DNA from: a virus
Lineage: Duplodnaviria; Caudoviricetes
Length of the DNA stretch: 64,000 nt
Reading direction: 5' to 3' (one strand)
Virus record (IMG/VR): IMGVR_UViG_3300028549_000365
Coordinates: 32,001 to 96,000 of that record
The notes beneath the pieces are model-generated. The model worked only from the letters and a program-made list of their open reading frames with translations, had not been told where the DNA came from and searched no databases. A program made the position numbers and the translations under genes. How positions within the stretch are numbered: the stretch's first letter is position 1; the number at the start of each line of letters is the position of its first letter. This document shows, one piece after another, positions 1 to 31,628 of the stretch.

Positions 1-76
1 TATTAATAGGTACTAAATTCTTATGTCCGTCAGAATCTGTTAATTCTTCAAATGTAAAATTTTTACTTAAGTTCAT
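1..76 (-). CDS. Peptidase M15A family protein / putative endolysin, N-terminal fragment running off the window
   Basis: Not in the ORF track. AAGGAG RBS then ATG at 76 reads MNLSKNFTFEELTDSDGHKNLVPIN, matching the MxLSxNFTLxELTxS start typical of Peptidase_M15_3 proteins. Only 25 codons are visible. Confidence 0.6.
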   Translation of the reverse strand, partial: MNLSKNFTFEELTDSDGHKNLVPIN

Positions 77-165
77 GTATCTCCTTTTATATGTTTTCAA
101 ATATATGCTATGTCACCTATTTTTTTTAGGATTACTTGAATTATTTTAATATTAAGAGGTGGACA

Positions 166-594
166 ATGCAAAGCATGAAAGATAAATTGGACGCTTTAAA
201 AGAGGCGTTGTATAATAGTACAGAAAACACAGTAGATAGCGATTTTACTCGTTTAATAAAAATAAAAGATATAGACGACGAGCTATTTGAGACGCTTATA
301 TTGATACACTCTAATTATAAAAACGAAATGCAGTCTGTGAAAAGACTTAATAGTAATACAATTACTAAACTTATAGATTTACAAATAGATATGTTGACAC
401 ATTATAAATTAGTTTTAGCGGATGTAGACAACTTAAAAAATGGTAGTGTTAAAAACCAGTTATTAACACCTAAAAATATAGTTATAGTATTAACAACGCT
501 AGGAATATTCATATCTGGTATATGGGTGTTGTTCGCTATAAACCCAGCTGCTGGTGATGCAGTAGTTAAAGTAATAACAAGTATATTTAAATAA
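166..594 (+). CDS. Membrane protein, helical N-terminus and C-terminal TM segment(s), holin-like topology
   Basis: RBS GAGG before ATG 166 (track start 136 is TTG). C-terminal hydrophobic stretch IVIVLTTLGIFISGIWVLFAI. Divergent from the M15A gene. Confidence 0.55.
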   Translation: MQSMKDKLDALKEALYNSTENTVDSDFTRLIKIKDIDDELFETLILIHSNYKNEMQSVKRLNSNTITKLIDLQIDMLTHYKLVLADVDNLKNGSVKNQLLTPKNIVIVLTTLGIFISGIWVLFAINPAAGDAVVKVITSIFK

Positions 595-603
595 GGACAT
601 AAA

Positions 604-1260
604 ATGATATTAAAGATTATAAAATTATATAACAAGATTTTAAGTTGGTTTTCAAAGCCTGAACCACAGCATCCAGAGATAAATACTTACACTCCTCCTA
701 CTAGAACAAGAGAAGCTATAATAGATAGTATAGATTATACTAACATAAAAGAACCTGACATATATAAAGTTAATGATACTAATAAGACTCTATTATTTAT
801 GGACGATATAGCTGAAAGTGAAATTCTGTATAAAGTAGATATAAGTAGAATGTTGAAGACTTATAAGAAGTCAGTACTTAATGATTTCACACTAGTGCAT
901 TGTTTTGATAACACAGCGGGTTATATGGTATATAAGTATATACTAGCTGGAAACAATATAGACTATGCTATATTAGATGTTAGTTTAGGTTATAAATTAC
1001 AAGTATCTCAAACTGAGTCAGTAACTCTTGATGGTATAGACGTAGCTTTATTGTTACTTAAACATAATCCAGATGTAAAGTTCTTGTTTTCTACTGTACA
1101 TACTATGAATGAAAGAAATCCAGAAATGTCTGTTTACTATAAGAAGTTTAGAGCGGCTACTGGTAAATCACTTATGGATCATTATTTAGATAAGAACAGT
1201 TATAGACATGATAAACTATATACCTTTTTATACGGTGACGAAAATGAAACTAACAGTTAA
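604..1260 (+). CDS. Stand-alone response-regulator receiver (CheY-like) protein with N-terminal extension
   Basis: LLFMDD acidic pocket, YAILDVSL phospho-acceptor Asp (codon 976-978), LDGIDVA, FLFST, terminal YLDK lysine. No output domain. Confidence 0.8.
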   Translation: MILKIIKLYNKILSWFSKPEPQHPEINTYTPPTRTREAIIDSIDYTNIKEPDIYKVNDTNKTLLFMDDIAESEILYKVDISRMLKTYKKSVLNDFTLVHCFDNTAGYMVYKYILAGNNIDYAILDVSLGYKLQVSQTESVTLDGIDVALLLLKHNPDVKFLFSTVHTMNERNPEMSVYYKKFRAATGKSLMDHYLDKNSYRHDKLYTFLYGDENETNS

Positions 1261-2662
1261 CGTAAAACTACAGATACTTTTTAGTAAGTATAACCTTATA
1301 AAATACTTTTCAATGTTAATATCGTTCTACTTATTTTTCTTAGTTATCTACGCGGTAACTTTGATAAGTTTATATAGTGATGTGACAAATGATTATAATA
1401 CACGTTTAGCCACTATTGATAAGACTGAGGGTACAGAATTTAACCTTATGTGTAATGTTGTTTCTTGTAAGAGATTAACTTATAAGTTAGACGATAAAGG
1501 TAATATGTTAACATACGTTAATGATAACAATATACTTAAGGTAAGTGAGAATAAATTTCCTAAAGATAATATATATTTTGGTTTTGTAAACCAGAATTTA
1601 GAAACTGTTATACACTACGGAGATCTTACTTTTTATATAGATGACTTTAAATACATATCATTAGTATTTACATTACTAGTGATAACTAACTTCTTATTCA
1701 CAATAATATTTACATTAGTGTTTATAAAAACAGTATTAGACAGGTATCATAATGAACTTATAGAAAAGAATGTATATAAGGCAGACTTAGAAACTAAATT
1801 ACAGAGAGATATAACAGAAAGTATACACCATGAGATGGGGATGCCTATAGCTATAATAGATACTTTAGTAACAGACCTTTATGCTAATCTTTATAAATGT
1901 AAATACACAGATGACGGTGTATGTGACTTTAACAACGAAACTGTTGATAAGTCGCTCTGTAAAGACTGTCCGCTACATAGTAGAAAGAGAGAGACTGACA
2001 CCTTGGCTATAGAGTATTACTCTAGAATAAAAGCGTCTATAGTTAAACTTAATACTATACTCAATCTTATAGCTGGATCTAAGCATATAAAATATGGTAA
2101 CGGTAGTTACAGTGCGTATATGATAATAGAGAATGTGTTAGCTGGTATAAATAACTTTAGAGTTAGTAAAATAAAAGCTACTTACATTAATCAAGAACTT
2201 ATGCATAAATGCGCAGTAGGTGCACCTATGAATAATGGTGAACTGATGTTGGTTATTAACAACATTATAACTAATAGTATTGAAGCTGATACGCCTGAAA
2301 TGATCTTTGAAGCAAGTATGAACCCAGATGGTAGATTAGATATAATAGTTACAGATAAGGGTAGAGGTATCAGAGATGGTTTCGATAACATAATAGCTGA
2401 TGATATTATATTTAAATATGGATATAGTACTAAAGATAGTAAAGGTATACATATGGTGTCAAGCAGTATTATTCAGAAGATATTGTATAAGTTAGGGTTT
2501 AGTGTAGCTACTACCTCATCAAGAGGTTCAGGTTTATCTACTAACAAGGGTATGTTATTAAACTCAGGAGGCGACTTAGTGTTACTTTCAACATCGTATT
2601 TAGGAACAAGTTTTAAAATAACCATACCAACCAAGGAAAGAAGAAATGAACAAAAAACTTAG
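1244..2662 (+). CDS. Membrane sensor histidine kinase (2 TM, HisKA and HATPase_c)
   Basis: Two TM segments flank a ~100-aa periplasmic domain. H-box ESIHHEMGMP (His at 1829-1831), N-box NNIITNSIEA, G1 DKGRGI, F-box IFKYGYSTK, G2 RGSGL, final GTSFKITIP. ATG 1244 overlaps the receiver gene end. Confidence 0.9.
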   Translation: MKLTVNVKLQILFSKYNLIKYFSMLISFYLFFLVIYAVTLISLYSDVTNDYNTRLATIDKTEGTEFNLMCNVVSCKRLTYKLDDKGNMLTYVNDNNILKVSENKFPKDNIYFGFVNQNLETVIHYGDLTFYIDDFKYISLVFTLLVITNFLFTIIFTLVFIKTVLDRYHNELIEKNVYKADLETKLQRDITESIHHEMGMPIAIIDTLVTDLYANLYKCKYTDDGVCDFNNETVDKSLCKDCPLHSRKRETDTLAIEYYSRIKASIVKLNTILNLIAGSKHIKYGNGSYSAYMIIENVLAGINNFRVSKIKATYINQELMHKCAVGAPMNNGELMLVINNIITNSIEADTPEMIFEASMNPDGRLDIIVTDKGRGIRDGFDNIIADDIIFKYGYSTKDSKGIHMVSSSIIQKILYKLGFSVATTSSRGSGLSTNKGMLLNSGGDLVLLSTSYLGTSFKITIPTKERRNEQKT

Positions 2663-2927
2663 TGTAATAGTTATTGTCGTTTTACTTAATATTAACGTAC
2701 TAATCGCTGATACACCATGCGGCGATTGTGTTACTATAGTAAAACATTTTGATCTAGATGTTACTATAAAGAACACATCTGGATGGAAGCGCGTTTGTAA
2801 TAACGGAAAAATAAAATTGTACACAAGTAAGAAGCTCGTAGGATCTGATTTAACAGATTTATGCGAGTGTATAACTAAAGAACAATTTAGAAGCAGAGCG
2901 ATTGAATCAACAAGGGTTATAAAATGA
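2646..2927 (+). CDS. Small secreted/periplasmic Cys-rich protein
   Basis: Sec-type signal peptide MNKKLSVIVIVVLLNINVLIA. Five Cys (CGDC, RVC, LCEC). Overlaps both neighbours. Confidence 0.65.
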   Translation: MNKKLSVIVIVVLLNINVLIADTPCGDCVTIVKHFDLDVTIKNTSGWKRVCNNGKIKLYTSKKLVGSDLTDLCECITKEQFRSRAIESTRVIK

Positions 2928-4120
2928 AACAAATTTGTATATTAATTATAATGATATTATGTAGCTTAAACCTTTATGGTGAAATAGCTACCAATATATC
3001 AGGGAACATAGAATACAGTAATATTAATACTGAAACAACTTATAACAACGGAGACTCTAAACAATATAACATAAATAGATTAGATACCACTGTTAATGTG
3101 GATACATATTTTGATAGTAGTAAGTTTGTCGTTAGCATCGGATATCTAGGTACAGATAGTGATGTTTATAATAATGTAGTACAAAAGGATATAACACCAC
3201 TTAAGGTGTTATATATAAATGAATTTTATTACACCACTAATATTTCGGAACACCTAACTGTATCTATTGGAGAGTTTACATTCAGAAAGGGTACGTTCTA
3301 TGAGCATAGTTATACTGGTGATAAGGTAGGTAATGGACTTTACAATATAATAGATGTTAATCTACAAGGTGGGTTAGTTAGCTGTATAACAGAGAATCAT
3401 GTTATAAGTATAGGTCGTATGTACTTTGATAAGTACGGTAAATCATTTTACGATTATGGTGAAGTTAACCCTGAACTATCTTACGATAGTTATAAAGGTA
3501 CAAATGTTGATATGCTTATACATAAATACAACAAAGATGAATTATACATAGAAACTAACATTTATGATATGGAACAGGTTGTAAACGGTTCACCTATTAT
3601 AAATACAAAAGCTTTAGGTGTTGGGATATCTTATGACAATACAGATAACAGTGGTATATTATATTATAGTATATTAACTAAAACAAAATCTACTGGTGAC
3701 ACTACTTCTTTATCACCTATATTTGTACCATATAAATCAGATAAGATACATTTCGATAAGTTTAGATCAAATGGTTACAGTTATTTGTTAGGTGTAAAAA
3801 AAGAATTAGATAATGTAATCTACGGAAAAGACATGACAATAGGATTTACATATACAGATAGAAGTAAAGGTTATCATAGTTTATTAGCTGGTTCACCTAT
3901 GTCACCTATGTCATATAGTGATGTCGGTAAATTCTACAATGTAAATACAGGATTAAAACTTAATAAAGATACTGTTATTAACTTAATGTATAGTAGACAT
4001 GACACAACTGGTATAAATAATAAGCTAGGTCTAAGTACTTTAACCTATGAAACAGGTAATTTACCTAATGGCGTGTCGCACAATGACAGTCTGATTGTTC
4101 AATTTTATATGAATTTTTAA
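2924..4120 (+). CDS. Outer-membrane beta-barrel (porin-like) protein
   Basis: Signal peptide, many alternating amphipathic strands rich in Y/G/N, and C-terminal strand LIVQFYMNF ending in Phe (BAM-type signal). Confidence 0.7.
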   Translation: MKQICILIIMILCSLNLYGEIATNISGNIEYSNINTETTYNNGDSKQYNINRLDTTVNVDTYFDSSKFVVSIGYLGTDSDVYNNVVQKDITPLKVLYINEFYYTTNISEHLTVSIGEFTFRKGTFYEHSYTGDKVGNGLYNIIDVNLQGGLVSCITENHVISIGRMYFDKYGKSFYDYGEVNPELSYDSYKGTNVDMLIHKYNKDELYIETNIYDMEQVVNGSPIINTKALGVGISYDNTDNSGILYYSILTKTKSTGDTTSLSPIFVPYKSDKIHFDKFRSNGYSYLLGVKKELDNVIYGKDMTIGFTYTDRSKGYHSLLAGSPMSPMSYSDVGKFYNVNTGLKLNKDTVINLMYSRHDTTGINNKLGLSTLTYETGNLPNGVSHNDSLIVQFYMNF

Positions 4121-4122
4121 TA

Positions 4123-4156
4123 GTATAACACATAAGGGTTACCTTATGTGTTATAC
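4123..4156 (+). terminator. Hairpin closing the receiver-kinase-porin operon
   Basis: 15-bp perfect stem GTATAACACATAAGG / CCTTATGTGTTATAC with loop GTTA. Confidence 0.7.
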
Positions 4157-4188: not shown

Positions 4189-4689
4189 ATGGAAAATATA
4201 AAACATTACGAAATAGCTAATTGTGTTAGTGTACCTGTTACACTAGCGTTTCTAAAAGTAGATGCATCAAAGAGTGTGTATGGTAAACTTATAAGCTGGT
4301 GGACTAAGTCTGAGTTTGTACACGTAGAGATTATAATAGGGGATATGTGGATTAGTTCAGTAGAGGGAACTGGTGTGCATATTAAACAACTTAAGCCGTT
4401 GAAAGATACTTATGTGTATCATAAACTAAGAGACGCTGTTATGACAGAGTCACAATACTTGGATATAAAAGAATGGATATGCCAACAAGAGAACGCTAAA
4501 TACGACAATACAGGTATAGTGTTATCACAAATTATACCTATTAGATACGACAGTAGAACTAAATGGTTCTGCTCTGAAATAGTAACTAAAATATTACAGT
4601 TGCTGGGGTACAAAGAGGTATTTAATTTATTACCGCATTTAATAGATCCAGGTTTTTTAACAAGATTATTTAAAGTAGTAAAGGAGTAA
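4189..4689 (+). CDS. Permuted papain-like (NlpC/P60, YiiX/YebB-type) amidase/peptidase
   Basis: His motif FVHVEI before ENAKYD and WFCSEIV (catalytic Cys after His, the permuted order). Confidence 0.7.
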   Translation: MENIKHYEIANCVSVPVTLAFLKVDASKSVYGKLISWWTKSEFVHVEIIIGDMWISSVEGTGVHIKQLKPLKDTYVYHKLRDAVMTESQYLDIKEWICQQENAKYDNTGIVLSQIIPIRYDSRTKWFCSEIVTKILQLLGYKEVFNLLPHLIDPGFLTRLFKVVKE

Positions 4690-4693
4690 CACT

Positions 4694-5875
4694 ATGAACG
4701 AAGAACAAATGAATATAAAACTAGACAGTCTAATATTAACATTAGAAGATAAAGAAAATAAGTTATTAAATTTGAATAAAATAAACTTACTTATAGGGGA
4801 TAATACTAACTTACAATACGACGCTAGCGTAATTGATAATGTTGAATTAAGTAAAGAGCACTTAGTAGGTATATACGGAGAACTTAATAAGTTAGGGTAT
4901 AACTTAGAAGATGATACTCTATATCATATGTCTACTGAAAGTTATGATAGTATATCTGCTGAAGATCTAGACGGTGAGAGAAAGAGTCTTATAGCTAGAG
5001 TAGACAGGTATATACGAAACGTAATAGGCGATATTACATCTATAGGTGATGATTTAGACTCTATAATGAAACTTATGAAAACAGTTAAGACTGATAAGCT
5101 AACTAAATTACTTAATGATCTAAATAGTGGAGTTTATAAAGAATCTAAGGATAAGATAACTAACCCAGCTATAAATAGCGACTTAGCGTTCTATTTTGTA
5201 AACGGACACACTGATATAGAACTAAACTCTTTAAAAGAGCTGTGTTCTACAGCTAGTGACTTGTTACTTAAAGATAAGCTGTTTGATGTTATGACTAAAT
5301 ATGCTTATGATAATTTGATTGTTGGTACAGACGTAGAAGATGAGATACCTACACATCAAGCTTCTGTTAAACATTTAGATAAAATAACATTACCAGAAGT
5401 AAGAGATTGGTTAAATAAGAATACTAAATTTGGTATTTACAATAGATACATAGGTAACAAATTTAGAATACTTAGTGTGTATCAAGATGAAGATGGTGCT
5501 GATGTTAGATTTGACACATATAATATTCCTAAAAACTATTACTTCGGTAAGACATTATCTCCGTTAACACTAGAAGAGTGTAAGCAACTTGTTAAAGAAG
5601 GTATAGATTTAGCTAACGATAGTGCGACTATGGCTGCTGTTGGTAGAGTTAATGCATTTGATACGTTCTGGAAGAGTGTTAGAAGTAAAATAGGTACTAT
5701 GGTATCAACGCATTTATTTAATATGTTTGCAGTTAAGAGATGGTTTAGACAAATTAACATGGGTAATGTATATTCGACAGGTACATACACAGTTCTAATA
5801 GGGCTAAAGAAATCACATATTGATATGTTAGATATGATACACAACATAGTTATAGCTAGTACTAAAGGAAAGTAA
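4694..5875 (+). CDS. phiKZ-like internal head (virion) protein
   Basis: Acidic N-terminal propeptide with S/A-x-E processing-type sites (MSTES, ISAED) followed by a helical body, the pattern of phiKZ internal head proteins. Confidence 0.5.
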   Translation: MNEEQMNIKLDSLILTLEDKENKLLNLNKINLLIGDNTNLQYDASVIDNVELSKEHLVGIYGELNKLGYNLEDDTLYHMSTESYDSISAEDLDGERKSLIARVDRYIRNVIGDITSIGDDLDSIMKLMKTVKTDKLTKLLNDLNSGVYKESKDKITNPAINSDLAFYFVNGHTDIELNSLKELCSTASDLLLKDKLFDVMTKYAYDNLIVGTDVEDEIPTHQASVKHLDKITLPEVRDWLNKNTKFGIYNRYIGNKFRILSVYQDEDGADVRFDTYNIPKNYYFGKTLSPLTLEECKQLVKEGIDLANDSATMAAVGRVNAFDTFWKSVRSKIGTMVSTHLFNMFAVKRWFRQINMGNVYSTGTYTVLIGLKKSHIDMLDMIHNIVIASTKGK

Positions 5876-6609
5876 TGAAAACTATAATATTATTTGTGAT
5901 GGTATTAGCATTAAATGCTTTTGCTAATAAATTAGATAAACTTCAAGAGCGTAACGACATAATAAAAGCTAGTTATAAGTCTGTTAGTGATAACGCGGAA
6001 CACACAGATACTTGGTTAGGGTATGTTAGATATGGTAAAGATGTTATTATTAAAGATACTAAATTATTTATCATACCGACATTCGATGGTAAGTACGAGA
6101 AACGTAATAATGTTCAAGTCAATGACAAGTATGATATTAGTCTATTATTAGAATGCGATATACCTAATTCTATAACAGGCTACTATTTAAAAGGTAGTTA
6201 TATTGTGGACGAAGCTAATAAGATATACAGTAAAACAAAAACAGGTATAGGTATGTACCAGTATTTATATAGATCTGATAGAGTGTTGCTAAAGACACGT
6301 GAAGGCGTACAATATAGTGACACAAGTTACACTATCGATAAAGATAGTGTAAATGTAGCTTATATTAAGTTTGGTTTATTGTCTGGTTATTATTATGCTA
6401 ACAATATATTTATAAAGGCTAAAGCTGATTATGATTTAAGTGTTAAAAATAAAGATGACATAATAGATACCTTAGTTAGTGCGGAGTACTCCATTAACGA
6501 TAAAGTTAGTATAGAAACATCTTATAGTTACCTTTATACAAAAACACCTATAACTAATCTACAGCACACACAAAGAGTTTTTACAACATACTTAATATAC
6601 AAGTTTTAA
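5875..6609 (+). CDS. Outer-membrane beta-barrel, DUF481/YdiY-like
   Basis: Signal peptide MKTIILFVMVLALNAFA, ~245 aa, amphipathic strands, GIGMYQYLY motif, C-terminal RVFTTYLIYKF ending in Phe. TAATG overlap with the upstream gene. Confidence 0.65.
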   Translation: MKTIILFVMVLALNAFANKLDKLQERNDIIKASYKSVSDNAEHTDTWLGYVRYGKDVIIKDTKLFIIPTFDGKYEKRNNVQVNDKYDISLLLECDIPNSITGYYLKGSYIVDEANKIYSKTKTGIGMYQYLYRSDRVLLKTREGVQYSDTSYTIDKDSVNVAYIKFGLLSGYYYANNIFIKAKADYDLSVKNKDDIIDTLVSAEYSINDKVSIETSYSYLYTKTPITNLQHTQRVFTTYLIYKF

Positions 6610-6628
6610 ATTAGTATAAGGATAACGC

Positions 6629-7129
6629 ATGGCACAGTCTTTTCTAACTGACGGTAAAAATATAGAAACAGTAAATACAATTAGTTCAACATCTAGTGCA
6701 ACAGACCCATATAATATATTTGCATTAAGGTTGTTAAAATCTACTAACAACTTTCCATTATGTATAGCTACAGGTACGTGTAGTGAAATAGCTTTACCTG
6801 AAACACCAAATGTACCACAGCCTCCAGTAGATCCTAATGAAGGAAATGGTGTTGATGGGTTCTCTTTAAGACAACAGTTATTTAAAGTAAACTTTAACAC
6901 AATATATAGTAACACTTCTAATTTACCAACACATACAGACACTAGTGATAAGAGATACTTAATACGTGAAGTGTATCTTCCAGATGGAAAGCAAATAGAT
7001 ATTACTATAGATATGAAAACTAAAGGTTTAATAGTTACTACTATAACAGGTGACACAGGCTTCGATAGACCTTTAATAAAAACTACTACTTATGAGAAAA
7101 ATAAATTTATAAAAACAGTTTATAGTTAA
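6629..7129 (+). CDS. Hypothetical protein with Pro-rich linker
   Basis: AAGGA RBS, ORF with PETPNVPQPPVDP linker. Confidence 0.6.
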   Translation: MAQSFLTDGKNIETVNTISSTSSATDPYNIFALRLLKSTNNFPLCIATGTCSEIALPETPNVPQPPVDPNEGNGVDGFSLRQQLFKVNFNTIYSNTSNLPTHTDTSDKRYLIREVYLPDGKQIDITIDMKTKGLIVTTITGDTGFDRPLIKTTTYEKNKFIKTVYS

Positions 7130-8567: not shown

Positions 8568-8599
8568 TATAGATACAAGGGAATTCCCTTGTATCTATA
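8568..8599. terminator. 32-bp perfect palindrome, terminator hairpin
   Basis: TATAGATACAAGGGAATTCCCTTGTATCTATA followed by a T-run. Confidence 0.75.
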
Positions 8600-8665: not shown

Positions 8666-9853
8666 ATGAGTATAGCAATAACAACTACTGATGTTACTAT
8701 TGATAATCAAACTGTTACATTCGAAGATATTTATCAGTATGCAGTTAGTATAAATAAGACGTCTTTAGTTAATAAACTGGGTAATGCTTATTTGTTAAAG
8801 ACGAATCTTAAACTACAAAATGGAGCTACAGTACAGGACATAAATAAGGCTATAACAATTGAGGGTAAACTTATACAGATACCAACTGGTTGTACATTAC
8901 GTCTAGGTGAACGTAGAACTGATCTTTCAACTCTTAATGGATGTACGTTATCTGCTCCTAATATAGAAAACGCTTATGGGTTTGGCGCTACCACTACAAC
9001 AGCTAGTGGTAATTTACTATTATATAATTCAACTATAAATATATTCGGTTTTTGGTCCTTCTTTAAAGGTGATAACTTAGTAGAGATTATAGACTGTTTT
9101 ATAGACGGATTCGGTAGGATATCGGGAGTTAACAGTATACTTAAAAATATTATATTTAAGAAAGCTCATGGTAAATATGGTGGTTTAGCAACTATGGGTA
9201 ACATATTACTTATGAAAGACATATATAGTTATGATGTATTACCTTATTATGACTCATATGAAAAAGCAACTGTTAAATGCGCGTTATATCATAATCCACA
9301 GTTTGCTCCAAATGTAACTATGTACTATGGTGAGTTTTCTAATTATGAGAGTTTATTGTATGTAGAATCTATGTCATCTGGATCATATACTTTTGAACTT
9401 AGAGGAACTAAAGTTACTAATGGATATTCTATGTATAAAGAAGTAGGTAGTAAAACTGACTTCAAACATAGTTTTAGATTTAAACCAAAGATATTAGATA
9501 GTAATGGTGCTACATTAATGGATGTTAATGTTGTTATAAAAGATAAAACAGGTGCAATTGTATTAAATGCTAATACAGATAATAATGGAAATATAGATAC
9601 GTGGTTAACATACTGTAAACAATTACAGACAGAGAACACTGTAACTATTATGACTCCGCACACTATAACTTTAACTTCTGGAGATATAACATCAGAGTTG
9701 AAATTATATGTTAATGATAACTTTGAGGACTTCCCTATGTATTTACAACAAAGTGGTGGTGTGAGTTGTTCTGAATTAGATGACAAATTAAATAGTATAA
9801 TAAGTAAGGTTGACTCGCTTATAGAGGAAAATAACTACGCTATAGTAGTATAA
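8666..9853 (+). CDS. Putative virion accessory protein (beta-helix-like region plus Ig/transthyretin-like domain)
   Basis: Beta-rich sequence, VVIKDKTG...NTDNNGNI carboxypeptidase-regulatory-like segment, C-terminal coil. Confidence 0.45.
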   Translation: MSIAITTTDVTIDNQTVTFEDIYQYAVSINKTSLVNKLGNAYLLKTNLKLQNGATVQDINKAITIEGKLIQIPTGCTLRLGERRTDLSTLNGCTLSAPNIENAYGFGATTTTASGNLLLYNSTINIFGFWSFFKGDNLVEIIDCFIDGFGRISGVNSILKNIIFKKAHGKYGGLATMGNILLMKDIYSYDVLPYYDSYEKATVKCALYHNPQFAPNVTMYYGEFSNYESLLYVESMSSGSYTFELRGTKVTNGYSMYKEVGSKTDFKHSFRFKPKILDSNGATLMDVNVVIKDKTGAIVLNANTDNNGNIDTWLTYCKQLQTENTVTIMTPHTITLTSGDITSELKLYVNDNFEDFPMYLQQSGGVSCSELDDKLNSIISKVDSLIEENNYAIVV

Positions 9854-9873
9854 AAAATATATAGGAATATAAA

Positions 9874-11253
9874 ATGGGTTTAAATGTAAGTTTTAAAGGT
9901 TTCGCTAAAGACGAGAACGATGTAGCTATAGACTGTAAGTTCCAGATACATTTTGTAAGACAAAATAAATGGAATAATGCTAGAAACACTACTGAAAGTT
10001 ATTATAGTTTCAACGCAGGAAGTGAGGATGGGTTAACTCAAGATGGTGATATGAAGAGCGGTGATGTTATATTATTAACTTTTTGGCACGGTAACGGTAG
10101 TGGTGATGGTGATGATAGTTTATTGTTAAACACACCAGCTAATAGAGACGATGTATTTGATAGGTTCTGTGTATTTGCAATAACACACGATGGTACAACA
10201 CAAGATTATGTTGTTAATGTACAACTTAAACCTAAGCTTGTTCCTAACATAGTTTGGACATTACCGACAACTGGAACTATTAATAGAACAATAACGGCTT
10301 TAAATACTTCTAATGATGAAACTAACTGGGTTTATGGAACTAAAACATTTTATCATCGTAACAGTTATTATGGTAGAGTTGTGTTCCCTAAGGTTGGGTT
10401 ATTAACTAGTACTTATGATTGGGTTGATCCTAATGACGCAGTTATTGATTATGAATCGTCTAACACACATAGTTATACACAAATAGGTGATTATGTTGTT
10501 AAACTTAAGGTAGTAAATTACTGGGAATTAGTTAGTAATAGTACTAAACCTATTAGATTAAAATATAATGTACCAATAGGTGGATTGAGTTTTAATCCTG
10601 ACGGAGTAACTGTTAAAGTGCATACTACTGAAAATAGTACATCTACAGCAAGTATAACTGATGAAGATAATAGAATATCATCTATTAACCATAACTGGGT
10701 TATTAAGAATAGAAATACTTTAGCATTAATAAGTGACACACTAGTTGATACAAATACTAATAAAGCCTACTCTTATAATAAAGTAATTAGTGTGTTACAA
10801 AAACATTATAGTAAACAAGTTATATCTTGGAACGATGGTTGGGAGAATTTAGTTGTAACATTTGAGAAAGAGTTAGTTATTACTAACTGGTTACCGTTAG
10901 TTAACTTTAACTTTATATTCCTTAATGATACAAGAGTTAGATTTACTCCTGTTTGTAGTGATATAGACGGATTCGTAGATAGATACACATGGAATTTATA
11001 TGCGTTAGTTCCTTTCCAAACTGGTACATATGCGTTATCTAAAACAGATGTGTTTACAGATGACCGTAATGTTGTAATAAACTTTGACTCAGCTGGTCAT
11101 TATAAGATGGTGTTAACTGCTAGAGATGATTATGGTGAAAGTGCAAGTGTTAGTAGAGAATTCGATGTAACATTAAGTGGTGATTGTGAATTAAGTGGTG
11201 GTATGACAAGTACTGATGTATTCTTCATTATACCAGATGAATATGAAAATTAA
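9874..11253 (+). CDS. PKD/Ig-like domain virion protein
   Basis: HSYTQIGDYVVKLKV, CSDIDGFVDRYTW and FDSAGHYKMVLTARDDYG are PKD-type motifs. Confidence 0.6.
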   Translation: MGLNVSFKGFAKDENDVAIDCKFQIHFVRQNKWNNARNTTESYYSFNAGSEDGLTQDGDMKSGDVILLTFWHGNGSGDGDDSLLLNTPANRDDVFDRFCVFAITHDGTTQDYVVNVQLKPKLVPNIVWTLPTTGTINRTITALNTSNDETNWVYGTKTFYHRNSYYGRVVFPKVGLLTSTYDWVDPNDAVIDYESSNTHSYTQIGDYVVKLKVVNYWELVSNSTKPIRLKYNVPIGGLSFNPDGVTVKVHTTENSTSTASITDEDNRISSINHNWVIKNRNTLALISDTLVDTNTNKAYSYNKVISVLQKHYSKQVISWNDGWENLVVTFEKELVITNWLPLVNFNFIFLNDTRVRFTPVCSDIDGFVDRYTWNLYALVPFQTGTYALSKTDVFTDDRNVVINFDSAGHYKMVLTARDDYGESASVSREFDVTLSGDCELSGGMTSTDVFFIIPDEYEN

Positions 11254-11915: not shown

Positions 11916-13742
11916 ATGGCTGGAACAATTAAAGCGGGTATACCGCACGTAATTAAAGTTAACACAAAAGCTGATAAAATGGGTCAAGAAGCTGGGTTCG
12001 ATTTAAAATACTACAATGATGCTACTAGAGAAATGGTTTCTGTTGCTGGTGCATTTTTTGAATTTGAAAATACTATAGTTCCTGCGAGTACAACTGTTGT
12101 TGGAAATCACGCTGCTGGTATTAAAGAGCTTACTCTTGATAGTGCTACGTCTTTCCCAAGAGGTTCTGTACTTAAAATAGGTGATAACTACTCTAGAGTA
12201 GTATCTGTTGCTGGTAACGTAGTTACTTTAAAACACGGACTTGCTGTTGCTGTTGTTGGTGGAGCTACTGTTGATCTTTCTGGTAGAACTGGTACATATG
12301 GTTTACCTGTAACATTCCCTGCGAAAGGAAAATATACAGTACATATGTCTAACCCATCTATTGGTATGGATAATGAGGCTGCACCTGTAAGTGTTGAGAA
12401 TGCAGATATTGACGATGTTAAATTGTTAATAGATACATTACAAGCTGACATGAGCGCTGTTAAATCACAAGTTGATGCATTAGACGAAGATGAAGTTAAT
12501 AATATTTCTGAGAAAGTTACTGAATTAACAACTACTTTGAACACTGTACATAAACTTATTCTTAACACTGATGGTTCTGGAAGCGCAGTACCTAGTATTG
12601 TTGTAGCTGGAGAGTTATTGAGTCCTACATTAAATATAGTTGCTGGTGATACTTTAACAGGTAATACTTCTGGAGCTACTGGTATTGTTGCTAATATAGC
12701 TTTTGACGGTACAAATACTACTATTGAGTTAAGTAATGTATCTGGAGTTTTCCAAACTGGTGAGACTTTAACTTTAACAAGTACTATTCCTGTAGGTTGG
12801 GAAGTTGCAGATCAGATATCGTCAAATGGATTAACATCAGTAGATAATGGAAATGGTACATATACAGTTACAGTTGATACAACTGGATTTACACCTGTAA
12901 ATAGTGTTGCTATGATATCTGACGTATCTGGTGATTACACTCCATCAATAAGTGATGTGGTTATAGACAATGCTAATCACACAGTTACATTCATAACTAT
13001 AAATAACTTATCTTCAATGCCTGACGATATATATGCTTCAGGAGCTTATACTGATTATAATGGTGTACAAATTGAAAATGTAACAGTTAACTCTACAGGT
13101 AACAATGCTATAGATTCTGTTATTGAGTTTGTAGAAGAGATTAACAGATTGTTAAACGCAGAAAATGGATTAGCTGTACTTAAAGGTCTTAATAAAGATA
13201 TCGAAAATCTTATTAACGGTTCAGCTACATTAGAAGATGGTAGTGTTAACCCTACCGCAGGTAAAGGTCTTGTTAAAATATTCGATGAAATAGTAGCTAG
13301 TCATAGCGAAATTACAGAAATTAAAACATTAGTTAACGATACTACTGTTGGACTTGCTGCTATCAAAACTGCTGTAGATGCTGGTAAAACTGCTATCGAA
13401 GCTAAATTAGACGCTATGTTAAATGGTGCTGATGAAAACAGTTTAACTGCTAAAATCAACGCTGTTAAGTTAGCTGTGGAAGCTAACAGATCTATATTAG
13501 AAAACAGTACATTCGGATTAGAAGCTGTTAAAACTAACTTAGATACATTAGCTGCGTTGTTTGTTGACGGTGGATCTGTTGAAGTTAGATTTGATGTTAT
13601 TAACGAAGCACTTGCTACGTTAAGTTCTGCTATACTTACAGCTATTGAACAACAAACTGCTCATTTAGATTCTAAGTTCGCTGAATTAGAAGCTAAGTTA
13701 ACTGCTAACGCAGAAGCTACAACTTACTCAGTATTTGCATAA
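11916..13742 (+). CDS. Putative virion fibre/decoration protein (beta domains plus long C-terminal coiled coil)
   Basis: AAGGA RBS before ATG 11916. Ig-like and beta-rich domains, then ~200 aa of heptads. Confidence 0.55.
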   Translation: MAGTIKAGIPHVIKVNTKADKMGQEAGFDLKYYNDATREMVSVAGAFFEFENTIVPASTTVVGNHAAGIKELTLDSATSFPRGSVLKIGDNYSRVVSVAGNVVTLKHGLAVAVVGGATVDLSGRTGTYGLPVTFPAKGKYTVHMSNPSIGMDNEAAPVSVENADIDDVKLLIDTLQADMSAVKSQVDALDEDEVNNISEKVTELTTTLNTVHKLILNTDGSGSAVPSIVVAGELLSPTLNIVAGDTLTGNTSGATGIVANIAFDGTNTTIELSNVSGVFQTGETLTLTSTIPVGWEVADQISSNGLTSVDNGNGTYTVTVDTTGFTPVNSVAMISDVSGDYTPSISDVVIDNANHTVTFITINNLSSMPDDIYASGAYTDYNGVQIENVTVNSTGNNAIDSVIEFVEEINRLLNAENGLAVLKGLNKDIENLINGSATLEDGSVNPTAGKGLVKIFDEIVASHSEITEIKTLVNDTTVGLAAIKTAVDAGKTAIEAKLDAMLNGADENSLTAKINAVKLAVEANRSILENSTFGLEAVKTNLDTLAALFVDGGSVEVRFDVINEALATLSSAILTAIEQQTAHLDSKFAELEAKLTANAEATTYSVFA

Positions 13743-13812
13743 TAACAAATCTGTGTACACTAGAGGGCTGTTTACAGCTCTCGTGTGTCTACAAAATAAT
13801 AAAGGAATAACA

Positions 13813-14640
13813 ATGGAAAGATATGAACTAGTAGAAAAAGGACAATCTAATATTAAAGTAACTACTAATAAGGTGACTGGTACCACGACGTTAAAAGTGT
13901 ATAAGATAACAGGAACTGGTGCTACTCCTATATTGACAGATATATCACCAGCTAACCCAACTATAACTTCTATAGCATCAGGTGCTTTTAAGCAATATAA
14001 TTTAACCGCTCCTAATGAGGATTGTTATGTGTTAGTTTTATTCAATGGTATACCACAGTTTTTTAGAGTCGGTGTACCAACTTTAAGAATATTTACATAC
14101 AATGGTAAGACTACACCTGTTGTTACATATAAGCTATTAACGTTCGCTGGTGTTGTTTCAATGCAAGGTAACATGACGCATCTAGGTATAGGCATTTGGT
14201 ACGTTACACCTAACACTACAGGTGATTTCATATTTAGCTGTTCTGTAGGCGCACCTATACCTGTTCATACGCCTTATGTAGTTGATACTGTTGGTATGTC
14301 TGGAAAGATAGTGTTCCAAAAAGATAAATGGATGATGCTTGCTGTTCCTAAAGAGAACGCTAAGATATCTGATCTGTGTGCAGCTATGGAAACTAAATAC
14401 GGTGTATCAGCTAGTACAATATTTAGAATATTCAATGCTTACCCAGCTACAGCTACACAAAGTGATGAGATGTTAGATTATAAACCTAACGTTACACCTA
14501 ACAACACTAAATATAACTTTAGTTTAGTTTATTCTGACGGTACTAGCAAAGAAATAACTGGTTTTTGGTGTAGAACGTTAAACTACACTGTTAATAATAA
14601 TGCTAGTGAATTAGCTACTTATGAGTGGAGTTCTAATTAG
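13813..14640 (+). CDS. Putative virion accessory protein (beta-rich)
   Basis: AAGGA RBS before ATG 13813. Thr/Val-rich beta strands. Confidence 0.5.
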   Translation: MERYELVEKGQSNIKVTTNKVTGTTTLKVYKITGTGATPILTDISPANPTITSIASGAFKQYNLTAPNEDCYVLVLFNGIPQFFRVGVPTLRIFTYNGKTTPVVTYKLLTFAGVVSMQGNMTHLGIGIWYVTPNTTGDFIFSCSVGAPIPVHTPYVVDTVGMSGKIVFQKDKWMMLAVPKENAKISDLCAAMETKYGVSASTIFRIFNAYPATATQSDEMLDYKPNVTPNNTKYNFSLVYSDGTSKEITGFWCRTLNYTVNNNASELATYEWSSN

Positions 14641-14643
14641 ACG

Positions 14644-14671
14644 ACTATATAGAGGAATTCCTCTATATAGT
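14644..14671. terminator. 28-bp perfect palindrome
   Basis: ACTATATAGAGGAATTCCTCTATATAGT immediately after a stop codon. Confidence 0.7.
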
Positions 14672-14707
14672 TAGTGTTTTAATGAATATTATAAATTAGG
14701 AAAATGT

Positions 14708-14899
14708 ATGTTAATAGAAACAAAAGATTATGGGTTGATAGCGTATTGTATATTATTTCACAATGGTACAAAAGAAGAAAATGGTGTTAGAATACATACT
14801 GATCATCAGCATGTAAAACCTATAGATATTACCAAAGAGTATGAAAAAAGCGACTATAGTGTTTTTAATAAAATACTTAAAGCAGTAATAAAGGGCTAA
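14708..14899 (+). CDS. Hypothetical protein
   Basis: Short ORF with AGGA RBS, coupled to the next gene. Confidence 0.5.
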   Translation: MLIETKDYGLIAYCILFHNGTKEENGVRIHTDHQHVKPIDITKEYEKSDYSVFNKILKAVIKG

Positions 14900-14900
14900 T

Positions 14901-15503
14901 ATGATAGTTAACTATTCAATAAACGGAGGAGTTACCGTTAACGGTGTTAATGTAGCTAGTAAGTTTATTGTTAAGAATTTAACTAATGACTTTACTAGTA
15001 AAGAATATATAAGTGAGATTGGTTACTATAACACTAATCTAGGTAACTTTAAAGATACTATTTTTAATAACGGTGATTTAATAACTATAACATTCTTTAT
15101 ACGGCATAATGGTATAGACTATAGTTATATAGCGTATACGTTTATAGATATTACTAAAGATGTCACAACAATGAATATACAATTACAACCTAACTGGAAT
15201 TATACATCTAATATATTACTCACCAAGAGTAATACTAATGTTAATATTAAGTTCGTTACAAATATTTATCAATCTATAGTGTATATATTGTATATAAAAT
15301 ATGATGGTGTTTATAAAGAAGTTTCTAAGAAAAATATATTATCTCAGAATGTTAATATAAAAGTATCTAGTAACGGTGAGTATAAAGTGGTTGGTTACGT
15401 ATTAGATAATAATAGATTGTTGTCATACACTAGTAAAGAATTTGATATAGAAAATGTTGTTATAGAAGACTGTCAACAAACGACATATTACGATTGGGAA
15501 TAA
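14901..15503 (+). CDS. Hypothetical beta-rich, probably virion protein
   Basis: ORF in a co-oriented structural cluster. Confidence 0.5.
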   Translation: MIVNYSINGGVTVNGVNVASKFIVKNLTNDFTSKEYISEIGYYNTNLGNFKDTIFNNGDLITITFFIRHNGIDYSYIAYTFIDITKDVTTMNIQLQPNWNYTSNILLTKSNTNVNIKFVTNIYQSIVYILYIKYDGVYKEVSKKNILSQNVNIKVSSNGEYKVVGYVLDNNRLLSYTSKEFDIENVVIEDCQQTTYYDWE

Positions 15504-15507
15504 TATT

Positions 15508-15873
15508 ATGAGATATAGTAAAACAGAAATAACTACTTTAGTTGGTAACTTTAAACCAAACTCTATAGTAACTATAAAGTTAATAGATAGTAATACAGAC
15601 ACACTAGTAAATTTAACTAGTTCTACTTGTACAGAGAGTAGACATATACCTGGTGTATATTTATGGAAGACAGATAAGATAAGTGACAGTAACTTAAAGA
15701 ATGTTTTTCATAATTTAGTTTACGAGATGAGTAGTAACGACGGTAAGAAATTCTACGGTAAATTTATTTACAGTGGATATGTTGATAAGAATGTTGTTGT
15801 TGATTTTGACGATATTAAAGTCAATCTAAATGATTTACAAGATGGAATAGATTTAATAAACGGAAGGATATAA
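15508..15873 (+). CDS. Hypothetical Ig-like virion accessory protein
   Basis: CTES..IPGVYLW motif resembles the Ig-like module in 11269 and 11916. Confidence 0.45.
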   Translation: MRYSKTEITTLVGNFKPNSIVTIKLIDSNTDTLVNLTSSTCTESRHIPGVYLWKTDKISDSNLKNVFHNLVYEMSSNDGKKFYGKFIYSGYVDKNVVVDFDDIKVNLNDLQDGIDLINGRI

Positions 15874-15877
15874 TATT

Positions 15878-16750
15878 ATGGTTACAGTTAGATTAAGCGA
15901 GTTAGATATAGATGTTGATGTTACACATATTTCAACAGACTATCAAGTAGCTACAGATAGGTTATTCAGTATAGATAGTATAGTTTGTGAATCCATAGAC
16001 GATACTGTTAATAAGACGTTTATAACGTTTAACGAAGTGTTAGACCCAACTATTAAATACTATGGTAGAGCTAGGGTGAGATTATCTACTGGTTGTGCTA
16101 TATGGGGTGATGTAAGTATGTTTATACCTAAAGATATAAACGACGTAGAGTTAGATGGTGATTTACCTACTAGGGTTGGCATACCGCAAATAGCTAGCTC
16201 TAGTAGTTTTGAAGCACACACAACTACATTATTCACATTATATGCAACTGGTTTTGGTGTTATAGGTAACGCTGGACACACTATGACTTCGTGGATTATA
16301 GAAGATGTAAATGGTAATATAGTATGGAGTTCTGTTAATGATTATCTTAACAAAACAAAGATAAGTATAAATTCAATTTTACTTAAAGAAAATAACATAT
16401 ATAGATTTAAAGTTATATTTCACACTACTAGTAATGACGCTAGTCAGATAGCTACAAAGACTGTTAGAACATATAAATCAGAATTTATAAACTTACAGAA
16501 TAATATAACACATATAGATGGTTCTGTTGATAACGAGATATCGATATTCCAACAAACTGATTTAACATCTGTTAACTGGAAGATATTTACTATGGGTGAA
16601 AATAAGGAACAATTGACTTGGGAATATAGTAGTAATACAAATGTAGCTAACATACCAGCTAATACACTCAAGAATGTAAACAGTTATTTATTAGCGATAA
16701 CTACTAACTTATCTGTTAATCCACGTTACATAGCTTTTACGACATATTAA
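15878..16750 (+). CDS. phiKZ-like virion structural protein with FN3-like repeats
   Basis: Two repeats: HISTDYQVATD...YYGRAR and HTMTSWIIED...IYRFKV. Confidence 0.55.
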   Translation: MVTVRLSELDIDVDVTHISTDYQVATDRLFSIDSIVCESIDDTVNKTFITFNEVLDPTIKYYGRARVRLSTGCAIWGDVSMFIPKDINDVELDGDLPTRVGIPQIASSSSFEAHTTTLFTLYATGFGVIGNAGHTMTSWIIEDVNGNIVWSSVNDYLNKTKISINSILLKENNIYRFKVIFHTTSNDASQIATKTVRTYKSEFINLQNNITHIDGSVDNEISIFQQTDLTSVNWKIFTMGENKEQLTWEYSSNTNVANIPANTLKNVNSYLLAITTNLSVNPRYIAFTTY

Positions 16751-19666: not shown

Positions 19667-19696
19667 TTATAACAACAGGGATTCCTGTTGTTATAA
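19667..19696. terminator. Bidirectional terminator between convergent genes
   Basis: 13-bp stem TTATAACAACAGG / CCTGTTGTTATAA with loop GATT. Confidence 0.7.
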
Positions 19697-20746: not shown

Positions 20747-21229
20747 TTATTTTAAAATATTATTTTGTCTAATATACTCTAGTAATGAATTACATTCTAA
20801 ACTATGTATATAACCTTTTGTCTTATTGCGTAGATAATTAATAACGTACTTTGTTTTATGTGGAAGAAAGCAATTTGTACAATCGCAATGTACTTTAACA
20901 ACATTATTAATATCTGGATTCTCGTAGTATATATCTTTAAATTTAGAATTTATACCACATACGCTAGCTATACCGATTTTCTTATCAATAATAATATCAT
21001 TATTAATAATAAAGTGCGGGCATGCACAAAGTAAACAATTTAAATCATCTACATTATGACATTTTATATTGTCTTTGTATAAAGGACAGAAACTAGTTTC
21101 GTTAGTCTTCATATTTTCATAATCAAAATAACTAGCTATTTCTTCTGGTGTAGTAAACTTACTACCTAGTTTAGATAGTATACTGTTTACTTTCTCGTCA
21201 TGATCTTTTATCCACTCATCATATGTCAT
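20747..21229 (-). CDS. Cysteine-rich small domain (zf-like) protein
   Basis: FCPLY..KCH..LNCLLCACPHF motif. ATGA overlap with the nrdJ stop. Confidence 0.6.
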   Translation of the reverse strand: MTYDEWIKDHDEKVNSILSKLGSKFTTPEEIASYFDYENMKTNETSFCPLYKDNIKCHNVDDLNCLLCACPHFIINNDIIIDKKIGIASVCGINSKFKDIYYENPDINNVVKVHCDCTNCFLPHKTKYVINYLRNKTKGYIHSLECNSLLEYIRQNNILK

Positions 21230-30323: not shown

Positions 30324-31619
30324 ATGTACGCGATAATGAAGTATATTCTCAGCTCAGCTTCAGCTTTAGTACAAGAGAATACTAATAGTGATATAGTGTT
30401 TGAGGATAACACAGTTGGAGTAAGTTATAATGGAACACATATATCTAACTCTGTCATATACAATAACCCAGACTATAAGAAGTATATACTATCTAACATA
30501 GGCTTTGATGTTTGTACTATACATACATCTGGTATTGTTACTCCTGTAAGAGTGGCACCTAACTTACAGGGTTATAATGGTATGCAGAAGTTACTTAGTA
30601 TATTCAAAGGTAGAGCTAACGGAGTAGATGTTACTAAAGGTGTTCTAATAGTAGAACAGTACAGTATAGCTGGATCAACACATGATCAAAGTAAAAGTCT
30701 TATAGAGTACTACTTAGACAGTACTAATATCGATTACAATATAGACGTAGTAAATGATATAAGACAAGTTATTAAACAAAATGTGTCTAGAAAATCTAGT
30801 ATAAGTAAATGTAGTATTAGGATATGTCATTTCGTTCCAGAGTCAGAACTTAAAGAACATCATTGTGTTTACCACGAAGAATCAGATACTATGTTGCTAT
30901 ACGGTTTAATGGATAACAGTTATGTACATCCAAACAGTAGATTGTTTAAAGATAATAAAGAGAAACAACGTTTAGCTTCAGAAACCAATAACAACATAAT
31001 CGCTGTAGATATAGTTACTGATGATATAACTCAACCTTACTTTATTAAGTTTGGTAATGAAGTTATTAAATTATTACCTAGTAAAAATAGTAATATTGAT
31101 AATGGTGTTAATGTTAAACTTAAACGTAATGGAGTTATAGTTAGTGACACTCATACTGATATTAAAAGTATAGAAAACTTAGGTATTTATAAAAGTGTTG
31201 AACAATGTGAGACAGAGGGAGATGTTAAACTTAAACTTGAAAATGATAAGTTAGAACATGAGAAAGAAAAGTTAGAGTATTCTAAGCTTAAATTAGAAAG
31301 TGACATACAAAGTATTAAAGTTGAAAACGAATTAATACTTAAGAAGTATGAACATGAAATCTATATGTATGATATAAAAGTGCAGTTAGGTAATATGGAT
31401 CTAAATAAGAAATTACTAGATCACGAGTTAGATATATCTACTAAGCTGTTAGGTATTAAAATAGATACACATAAAGCTATTGCTGACATAAATATTAGAC
31501 TACAAAAACATAGTTTAGATATGGAGAAAGCTGATGCTGATAACTATAGAGACCGAGCTGATTTCGTTATGAAAATGACAAGCAATGCGCTTACGTTAGG
31601 CAAACAAATTTTTAAATAA
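30324..31619 (+). CDS. Conserved hypothetical protein with C-terminal coiled coil
   Basis: AAGGA RBS. EK/LE-rich heptads near the C-terminus. Confidence 0.65.
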   Translation: MYAIMKYILSSASALVQENTNSDIVFEDNTVGVSYNGTHISNSVIYNNPDYKKYILSNIGFDVCTIHTSGIVTPVRVAPNLQGYNGMQKLLSIFKGRANGVDVTKGVLIVEQYSIAGSTHDQSKSLIEYYLDSTNIDYNIDVVNDIRQVIKQNVSRKSSISKCSIRICHFVPESELKEHHCVYHEESDTMLLYGLMDNSYVHPNSRLFKDNKEKQRLASETNNNIIAVDIVTDDITQPYFIKFGNEVIKLLPSKNSNIDNGVNVKLKRNGVIVSDTHTDIKSIENLGIYKSVEQCETEGDVKLKLENDKLEHEKEKLEYSKLKLESDIQSIKVENELILKKYEHEIYMYDIKVQLGNMDLNKKLLDHELDISTKLLGIKIDTHKAIADINIRLQKHSLDMEKADADNYRDRADFVMKMTSNALTLGKQIFK

Positions 31620-31628
31620 GGATAAATA

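Follow-up and report, generated by a model that had tools for sequence, protein, structure and literature searches.

Two-component signaling is regarded as cellular, and its closest described counterparts to the locus considered here are classical HisKA systems with stand-alone receivers (CheA/CheY, DivJ/DivK, Spo0F, and CpdR). The stretch of DNA that was analyzed (the window; 64,000 nucleotides) comprises bases 32001 to 96000 of a 222,081-bp virus record, IMGVR_UViG_3300028549_000365 of IMG/VR (CheckV completeness, 83%), which originates from a microbial-mat metagenome. An operon at 166 to 4156 of the window comprises the genes for a bitopic membrane protein, a stand-alone receiver, a sensor histidine kinase, a secreted miniprotein, and an outer-membrane beta-barrel. 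Judged from their sequences, the kinase and receiver form a complete and catalytically intact pair, which phages inherit as a gene set of their own. This system resembles the classical systems in the H, N, G1, and G2 boxes of the kinase, the DD/D/T/K residues of the receiver (REC) domain, the adjacent and overlapping kinase and receiver genes, and the proposed output by protein contact. In contrast to those systems, it belongs to a lytic-type jumbo phage, lacks any close cellular relative, and has a receiver that escapes Pfam, begins with an amphipathic helix followed by a variable linker, and contains a beta-hairpin insert after beta3. The kinase also differs in having a Cys4 insert in the loop of its DHp domain, and a bitopic membrane protein is the obligate third gene.

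To our knowledge, phage phiCDHM1 has no receiver of its own. This temperate phage of a Gram-positive host, Clostridioides difficile, carries host-derived agrB, agrD, and agrC (Hargreaves et al. 2014, PMC3901668). Its AgrC is, like the kinase described here, a phage-encoded sensor histidine kinase, whereas the operon in the window supplies both a kinase and its receiver, from a phage-specific family, in a jumbo phage that infects diderms. Divergent receiver-fold domains of jumbo phages, termed cREC, are similar in kind but are described as never tied to histidine kinases and as linked to NAD+/ADP-ribose enzymes (Iyer et al. 2021, PMC7824862). In contrast, the receiver gene described here overlaps a kinase gene at every locus, and the phospho-acceptor set is kept. 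Literature searches on phage-encoded two-component systems returned no paper on such a kinase-receiver module.

The lysis cassette of phage phiKZ provides a second comparison. Its gp142 is a class IIIB holin with one transmembrane domain (TMD), an N-in orientation, a large cytoplasmic N-domain, and a small periplasmic tail; the next gene encodes gp143, a cytoplasmic regulator that acts through the N-domain of gp142, and an endolysin gene follows (PMC12894885). Behavior resembling lysis inhibition has been suggested as possible for phiKZ (Manohar et al. 2026, PMC12894885). The phage in the window is likewise a Chimalliviridae-type virus in which the gene of a predicted bitopic, N-in protein is followed by that of a cytoplasmic protein, with an endolysin gene adjacent. 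The downstream protein is, however, a putatively kinase-driven REC protein rather than a gp143 homologue, and no spanins lie alongside. Lysis inhibition in T4 (holin T, periplasmic antiholin RI, and cytoplasmic RIII) is similar in concept, as a periplasmic signal modulates holin timing via holin-binding regulators. Nevertheless, T4 senses through the large periplasmic domain of its holin and without phosphotransfer, and none of the components is homologous; the regulatory domain of the putative holin in the present phage would be cytoplasmic, so that a transmembrane kinase would be needed as a relay.

The Rcs and Cpx envelope-stress relays use accessory sensors, namely, RcsF with OmpA/C/F, NlpE with CpxA, and CpxP. 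By analogy, a small disulfide-bonded envelope protein and an outer-membrane barrel acting upstream of an inner-membrane kinase would form a plausible chain in the phage. Unlike those relays, the phage system has a miniprotein without a lipobox, no IgaA or HPt component, and a barrel that is phage encoded.

Kinase and receiver of the phage operon

The virus record encodes a phiKZ-type major capsid protein, virion proteins, a replicative helicase (divergent DnaB), and a ribonucleotide reductase, and the contig is that of a phiKZ/chimallin-type, nucleus-forming jumbo phage. The original prediction, made from the window sequence, had described five co-oriented genes, the last four overlapping and the run ending at a 15-bp hairpin, and this layout holds at every boundary. 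All five genes are on the plus strand. The membrane protein gene (166 to 594; 142 amino acids [aa]; assigned from hydropathy and a family alignment) has a strong Shine-Dalgarno sequence, AAGAGGTGG, 3 nt upstream and is separated by a 9-nt gap from the receiver gene (604 to 1260; 218 aa). Overlaps of 17 nt join the receiver gene to the kinase gene (1244 to 2662; 472 aa) and the kinase gene to the miniprotein gene (2646 to 2927; 93 aa, of which approximately 70 aa are mature protein), and a 4-nt overlap (ATGA) leads into the barrel gene (2924 to 4120; 398 aa); the miniprotein and barrel are coupled translationally to the kinase. The kinase start at 1244 is that of database gene call P0001; a longer frame begins at 1208. 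A hairpin search places the perfect hairpin that closes the operon at 4123 to 4156, with a 15-bp stem and a 4-nt loop.

The kinase was identified by its ATPase domain (HATPase_c, PF02518; 28.5 bits against a cutoff of 26.4) and by conserved boxes. A first transmembrane segment (residues 25 to 43) and a second (143 to 161) enclose a periplasmic domain of approximately 100 aa (approximately 44 to 142) that holds an invariant cysteine pair, C70/C75, and the DHp and CA domains follow. Its 46 homologues all come from metagenomes, the longest contig among them being 252 kb. Among 25 aligned homologues (23 to 46% identity), the invariant residues are those of the H box (h-x-x-H-E-x-x-x-P; E192, H196, E197, and P201), the N box (N344), the G1 box (DxGxG; D371, G373, and G375), and the G2 box (GxGL; G428 and G430). 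The H-box sequence, ESIHHEMGMPI, is encoded at 1817 to 1849, and the predicted phosphorylated histidine, H196, is encoded at 1829 to 1831. The family profile matches the solved kinases FixL, ZraS, WalK, HK853, and CheA at E values of approximately 1e-8 to 1e-6; the boxes are in register, and the H box aligns with those of FixL and ZraS.

No match to Pfam HisKA was found in the kinase at an E value of ≤0.1; its DHp domain is diverged and split by a Cys4(+His) insert in the hairpin loop. Translation and alignment place this insert at 1898 to 1978, with the pattern C-x7-C-x11-C-x2-C-x2-H. Of the 25 aligned family members, 16 have the Cys4 pattern, which is missing from the most distant clade; the insert could provide a cytoplasmic metal or redox input.

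The receiver was recognized by its AlphaFold2 fold and conserved residues. A cationic amphipathic helix and a linker of variable length occupy approximately residues 1 to 55, and the REC domain spans approximately residues 60 to 212. The protein ends with this domain and has neither an output domain nor a DNA-binding domain, so that the earlier description of a receiver without an output domain stands. The AlphaFold2 model, built from a 12-sequence alignment (predicted local distance difference test [pLDDT] score, 86), has the (beta-alpha)5 topology with a beta-hairpin insert after beta3, in the order b1-a1-b2-a2-b3-(hairpin)-a3-b4-a4-b5-a5. In a Foldseek search of the PDB, nearly all of the top 50 matches are REC domains, with a top probability of 1.00 and template modeling (TM) scores by target of 0.53 to 0.70. 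D67, D68, D125, and K197 are invariant and T164 is conserved in at least 90% of 12 to 14 homologues; relative to predicted strands beta1, beta3, beta4, and beta5, the acidic pair, the phospho-accepting Asp, the Thr, and the Lys are placed as is canonical. The N-terminal cationic amphipathic stretch is present in 14 of 14 homologues despite sequence drift. Three of 12 relatives match PF00072 (Response_reg) below its 30.2-bit cutoff (best E value, 9e-4), and REC chains of the PDB are matched by the family profile at an E value of no better than 0.07. Taken together, the modeled structure and the residues make clear that the protein is a REC domain despite the Pfam miss.

The original prediction had also held that kinase and receiver keep all phosphotransfer residues. 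This is confirmed by the invariance of H196 and of D125 (encoded at 976 to 978), and the catalytic residues of both proteins are kept across relatives at 25 to 45% identity. The kinase gene is the sole HATPase_c gene of the 222-kb genome and the receiver is its sole receiver, and they are therefore a cognate pair. The two genes very probably constitute a genuine, functional phage two-component module, in which a pair without a cellular counterpart includes a receiver that has diverged past standard receiver models.

Conservation and origin of the gene set

The window proteins were compared by BLAST with all retrieved loci. Every locus examined has the same triad, consisting of a transmembrane protein of approximately 140 to 200 aa, a receiver of approximately 210 to 320 aa, and a kinase of approximately 460 to 480 aa, with a spacing of 9 to 20 nt. 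More than 12 independent phage-like contigs, obtained from different samples, carry the triad, and genes for chimallin, the phiKZ major capsid protein, and divDNAB are present on some of them. All five genes stand in the same order at loci L003, L005, L023, and L024, which settles in the affirmative whether this order is conserved on phage contigs rather than on host chromosomes; four further loci (L009, L010, L015, and L017), each on a contig cut at one end, are consistent with it. Only the first three genes are present at L007, L013, L014, L022, and L025. Loci without the barrel are interspersed on the kinase tree, and the order of gain and loss is therefore not resolvable. The triad is thus universal and forms the core, and the miniprotein and barrel are an add-on of a subclade. 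The possibility that the five genes occur only separately in other genomes is contradicted by the recurrence of the full order and of the triad on phage contigs. In L023, a set resembling a diversity-generating retroelement (bAvd, an RVT_1 reverse transcriptase, and DUF4376; 13497 to 16075) lies a few kilobases downstream of the cassette, beside a 777-aa protein.

No close homologue was detected in 185,579 prokaryotic species genomes (one genome each), in which the only matches are weak and confined to the ATPase domain. Nucleotide and protein searches of 50,697 GenBank phages, including searches with a distant family member, found no relative of the region or of the kinase. A pattern scan of IMG/VR returned no relatives with the single kinase as the query and one relative with the alignment as the query. 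The module is a trait of a phage lineage and represents a phage-specific family; the family has no member in cultured phages and is missed by annotation pipelines.

The miniprotein, assigned from its signal peptide and alignment, has four family-conserved cysteines (C28, C51, C73, and C75) and a GWxRVC motif. The joint loss of C51 and C73 in one homologue implies that the two are joined by a disulfide and that the protein is therefore periplasmic. The protein has no lipobox (L-x-x-C), and its first cysteine lies at a variable distance from the cleavage site across homologues. In the loci compared, it always co-occurs with the barrel.

The barrel was assigned from its signal peptide, AlphaFold2, and Foldseek. 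The model (pLDDT, 82; predicted TM score, 0.80) has 16 long strands. At the C terminus, YMNF provides an aromatic beta-signal, with a conserved Y-x-x-F pattern and an invariant F398, and conservation is also high in loops L3 and L7. Foldseek matches it to the alginate exporter AlgE and general porins at E values of 1e-15 to 1e-10 and to porins in AFDB, but these structural matches are generic (TM score of approximately 0.55 and root mean square deviation of 7 to 8 Å). The nearest structure cluster in the Atlas is DUF3373, mostly from Campylobacterota (TM score, 0.79), which is a lead only. The probable host of the phage is a diderm with an AT-rich genome, for which Campylobacterota likewise provide a lead. 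Among 16 barrel members, Pfam gave no match even at an E value of 10. A second phage outer-membrane barrel, assigned to Pfam DUF481 (E value, 7.6e-14), is encoded at 5875 to 6609 of the window, and its homologue in L023 lies approximately 7.5 kb downstream of the cassette there. The original prediction had proposed a complete path from the outer membrane to the cytoplasm; as the miniprotein and barrel are confined to a subclade, such a path would be an addition to the triad rather than the core of the system.

Membrane protein, possible role in lysis, and alternative outputs

The 142-aa protein comprises a helical N-domain of approximately 98 aa, a single TMD (hydrophobic segment at approximately residues 99 to 125), and an amphipathic tail of approximately 20 aa; it has no signal peptide, and an N-in/C-out orientation is predicted. 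Its predicted topology is that of a class IIIB holin, and the gp142 family, represented in the gp142/gp143 comparison by sequences from seven Pseudomonas phages, has the same layout in topology and length (approximately 130 to 140 aa). At 50% identity, the protein family divides into 133 clusters. Even its distant members (E values of 1e-17 and 7e-10) are followed by genes for a receiver-like protein and a kinase, in one case beside a chimallin gene. A match to Phage_holin_5_2 is weak (E value, 0.024), and PHROGs has no family for four of the five operon proteins. No gp142 or gp143 homologues were detectable in this genome or in one complete relative, and that functional slot is therefore open. 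A word-index search for gp142 relatives retrieved only its own cluster.

The gene preceding the operon was predicted earlier to encode an M15A peptidase and to start divergently at 76, which proved correct. The Peptidase_M15_3 gene (153 aa; PF08291; E value, 6.7e-14) has its ATG at 76, and its 5' end occupies 1 to 76 of the window on the minus strand. The remainder lies upstream, at 9615 to 10076 of L002, the locus from this same genome in which 9094 to 10100 corresponds to genome positions 31094 to 32100, directly 5' of the window. A second M15 peptidase gene (M15_4/VanY type; L002, 9094 to 9588) is convergent with the first, with a 12-bp hairpin between them. Neither enzyme has a signal peptide or a transmembrane segment, and the phage thus has two candidate endolysins side by side. 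The 142-aa protein is the only transmembrane protein adjoining these two signal-less enzymes.

In most relatives (L003, L005, L013, L023, L024, and L025), the cassette instead follows genes for an approximately 680-aa protein, a ResIII helicase, and a protein of approximately 150 to 180 aa; some of the ResIII copies carry inteins. Homologues of the approximately 680-aa protein and the helicase are located at 194763 to 198302 of this genome, >55 kb from the cassette, which indicates that the cassette was relocated as a block beside the endolysins. L022 has a different arrangement. A 216-aa protein with a signal peptide, the SLT motifs ES, GxxQ, and YNxG, and a match to phrog_600 is encoded there on the minus strand (6092 to 6742), although its Pfam SLT score of 20.3 bits is below the cutoff of 21.3. 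This gene is divergent from the membrane protein gene, the position held by the M15_3 gene in the present phage. That a different muralytic family occupies this divergent position in each of two lineages is a suggestive but thin observation.

The overall explanation favored here, which is modestly probable, is a phosphorelay operon of the phage's own that belongs to the chimallin/phiKZ-type clade and acts at the inner membrane. The kinase would read a periplasmic or envelope cue, and the miniprotein/barrel pair may modulate this cue in the manner of RcsF with outer-membrane proteins. The kinase would then autophosphorylate at H196 and pass the phosphate to D125 of the receiver. Held at the inner membrane by its N-terminal amphipathic helix, the receiver is expected to act by protein contact because it has no DNA-binding domain and the phage DNA is inside a protein nucleus. 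Its most likely target would be the cytoplasmic domain of the upstream bitopic protein, and the chance that output runs through this protein appears close to even. The bitopic protein would be a class IIIB-type holin or be holin-like, and its phosphorylation-dependent control would advance or delay lysis, in a circuit similar to lysis inhibition that conveys a periplasmic signal to a cytoplasmic holin domain. Lysis timing would be the most likely output but is proposed tentatively, at odds clearly below even.

In its most specific form, this explanation places a holin under His-Asp phosphotransfer control, with a sensor consisting of barrel, miniprotein, and kinase that reports superinfection or envelope damage; it would represent the first phosphorelay lysis clock or lysis-inhibition circuit in any virus and is possible but rather doubtful. 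If the explanation is true, phages themselves would perceive the state of the host envelope, which would go beyond eavesdropping on host regulators. It also bears on the question raised in 2026 for phiKZ of how a holin with a cytoplasmic regulatory domain responds to events outside the cytoplasm. For such a holin, a transmembrane kinase would be the obvious importer of a periplasmic signal, and a transmembrane kinase with a receiver would therefore be a direct answer.

Several results weigh against this explanation or parts of it. An hhalign comparison of the 82-sequence family of the 142-aa protein with the 7-sequence gp142 family gave a probability of 6.6%, with only the TMD and tail aligned, and the comparison with a single gp142 sequence gave 0.1%; comparison of the receiver with gp143 for homology found nothing. 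Thus, the earlier idea of lysis timing retains the parallel to phiKZ gp142 in topology and gene order, but homology to gp142 is not demonstrable. No spanin genes were identified near the operon. The linkage to the M15 endolysins, also part of the original prediction, is not conserved and is specific to this phage, and most relatives have no endolysin gene beside the cassette; no M15 homologue lies within 7 to 8 kb of the cassette in any relative, and the complete 252-kb relative with terminal repeats has neither M15 enzyme. The protein of approximately 150 to 180 aa encoded ahead of the triad in most relatives was examined as a candidate for a displaced endolysin but discarded, as it has no conserved catalytic signature. 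Furthermore, the receiver itself has no match in Pfam, and no RNA-seq runs holding the window sequence were found. The barrel and miniprotein are missing from several lineages that retain the triad, and the part assigned to them in sensing is one that we infer.

Alternatively, the triad may be a sensory system with an output other than lysis, in which the bitopic protein is an accessory protein or co-sensor of the kinase similar to LiaF, MzrA, or SafA; this is unlikely but has substance. Possible outcomes include superinfection exclusion, a slowdown or hibernation upon starvation, and control of host motility or the envelope, with the receiver acting on another phage or host protein. The single-domain receivers CheY, DivK, and CpdR are known to have diverse protein targets, and such an output would fit the location of the triad beside replication/helicase genes, rather than lysis genes, in most relatives and the lack of homology of the bitopic protein to known holins. 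A complex predicted for the receiver with residues 1 to 100 of the membrane protein had a score of 0.02, the mark being 0.32, which gives no support to direct contact and is equally not counter-evidence. However, the bitopic protein and the receiver stay strictly adjacent across 133 diverged clusters, which suggests that they work directly as a pair. The parallel to phiKZ gp142/gp143 in topology and gene order favors lysis, as do the muralytic genes of different enzyme families that abut the triad in two lineages.

The module could also interfere with host signaling, either through phosphorylation of host regulators by the kinase or through use of the receiver as a phosphate sink, and thereby reprogram the envelope or stress responses of the infected host. 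The sink role is established for some single-domain receivers and could also suit one that lacks an output domain. Phages also target host two-component systems, an example being PIT4 of phage LSL4 (PMC10714779). This alternative is nevertheless improbable. Kinase and receiver are always encoded together, overlap, and codiverge, which is the pattern of a cognate pair, and neither protein is close to any cellular one whose choice of partner it might mimic. Moreover, nucleus-forming phages are generally known to bypass host transcription to a large extent.

Even less probable is that the barrel and miniprotein form a channel for uptake or export of nutrients, polysaccharide, or a signal and that the two-component pair regulates or responds to this transport. 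The best matches of the barrel, AlgE and substrate-specific or general porins, are compatible with such a channel, and in addition to the DUF481 barrel the phage encodes a SemiSWEET protein. However, the barrel matches are generic, the triad has a far wider distribution than the barrel and also occurs in its absence, and a system with no DNA-binding output has no obvious route to the regulation of transport genes. Finally, a host-derived fragment, whether a misassembly or a recent moron with no phage-specific function, would suit the typically cellular nature of two-component systems and outer-membrane barrels but was rejected, as the same cassette lies beside chimallin, capsid, and divDNAB genes on >12 independent phage-like contigs, one of them the complete 252-kb genome, the G+C content of the window is uniformly low (28 to 36%), the catalytic residues are conserved, and no close relative exists in the species genomes searched.

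Neighboring genes and probable transcript boundaries

The divergent intergenic region between the M15_3 and membrane protein genes (77 to 165) is AT rich and, from its sequence, is the presumed promoter region of the operon. No recurring promoter motif was found in 61 to 170, and matches resembling sigma-70 promoters in the upstream region are not above the expectation from shuffled sequence. Repeated 12-mers from 61 to 170 were considered as a promoter motif and rejected, as they lie within coding repeats elsewhere. Across the 222-kb genome there are 39 perfect hairpins with stems of ≥12 bp (approximately 1 per 5.7 kb), many of which begin with TATA or ATAA; examples in the window are located at 4123 to 4156, 8568 to 8599, 14644 to 14671, and 19667 to 19696. 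These hairpins are probably phage terminators or signals of transcript boundaries, and they bound the operon; the 12-bp hairpin between the M15 genes just upstream is another of the set.

Immediately after the operon hairpin, a 166-aa protein is encoded at 4189 to 4689. It matches phrog_1128 and, from its features and structure in the Atlas, looks like a permuted papain-like hydrolase of the YiiX/C92 type (NlpC/P60 superfamily). A homologue directly follows the kinase gene in L022 (9423 to 10028). Searches of the PDB by phmmer with this C92-like protein, the receiver, and the kinase returned nothing useful.

Other genes of the record were noted in passing. A 459-aa protein encoded at 9874 to 11253 of the window has a PKD domain at its C terminus (E value, 3.9e-7), and its 395-aa neighbor has a weak match to Big_1; both are possible surface-binding virion proteins. 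The open reading frame of the ribonucleotide reductase (21226 to 24108 of the window, minus strand; 960 aa) is matched by its PHROG in two stretches, consistent with insertion of an intein. At approximately 217700 to 220100 of the genome, a tandem family of paralogous genes contains near-identical stretches, in which segments of the form ATATA(T/C)GCTATGAATA repeat every 560 to 1170 bp, approximately.

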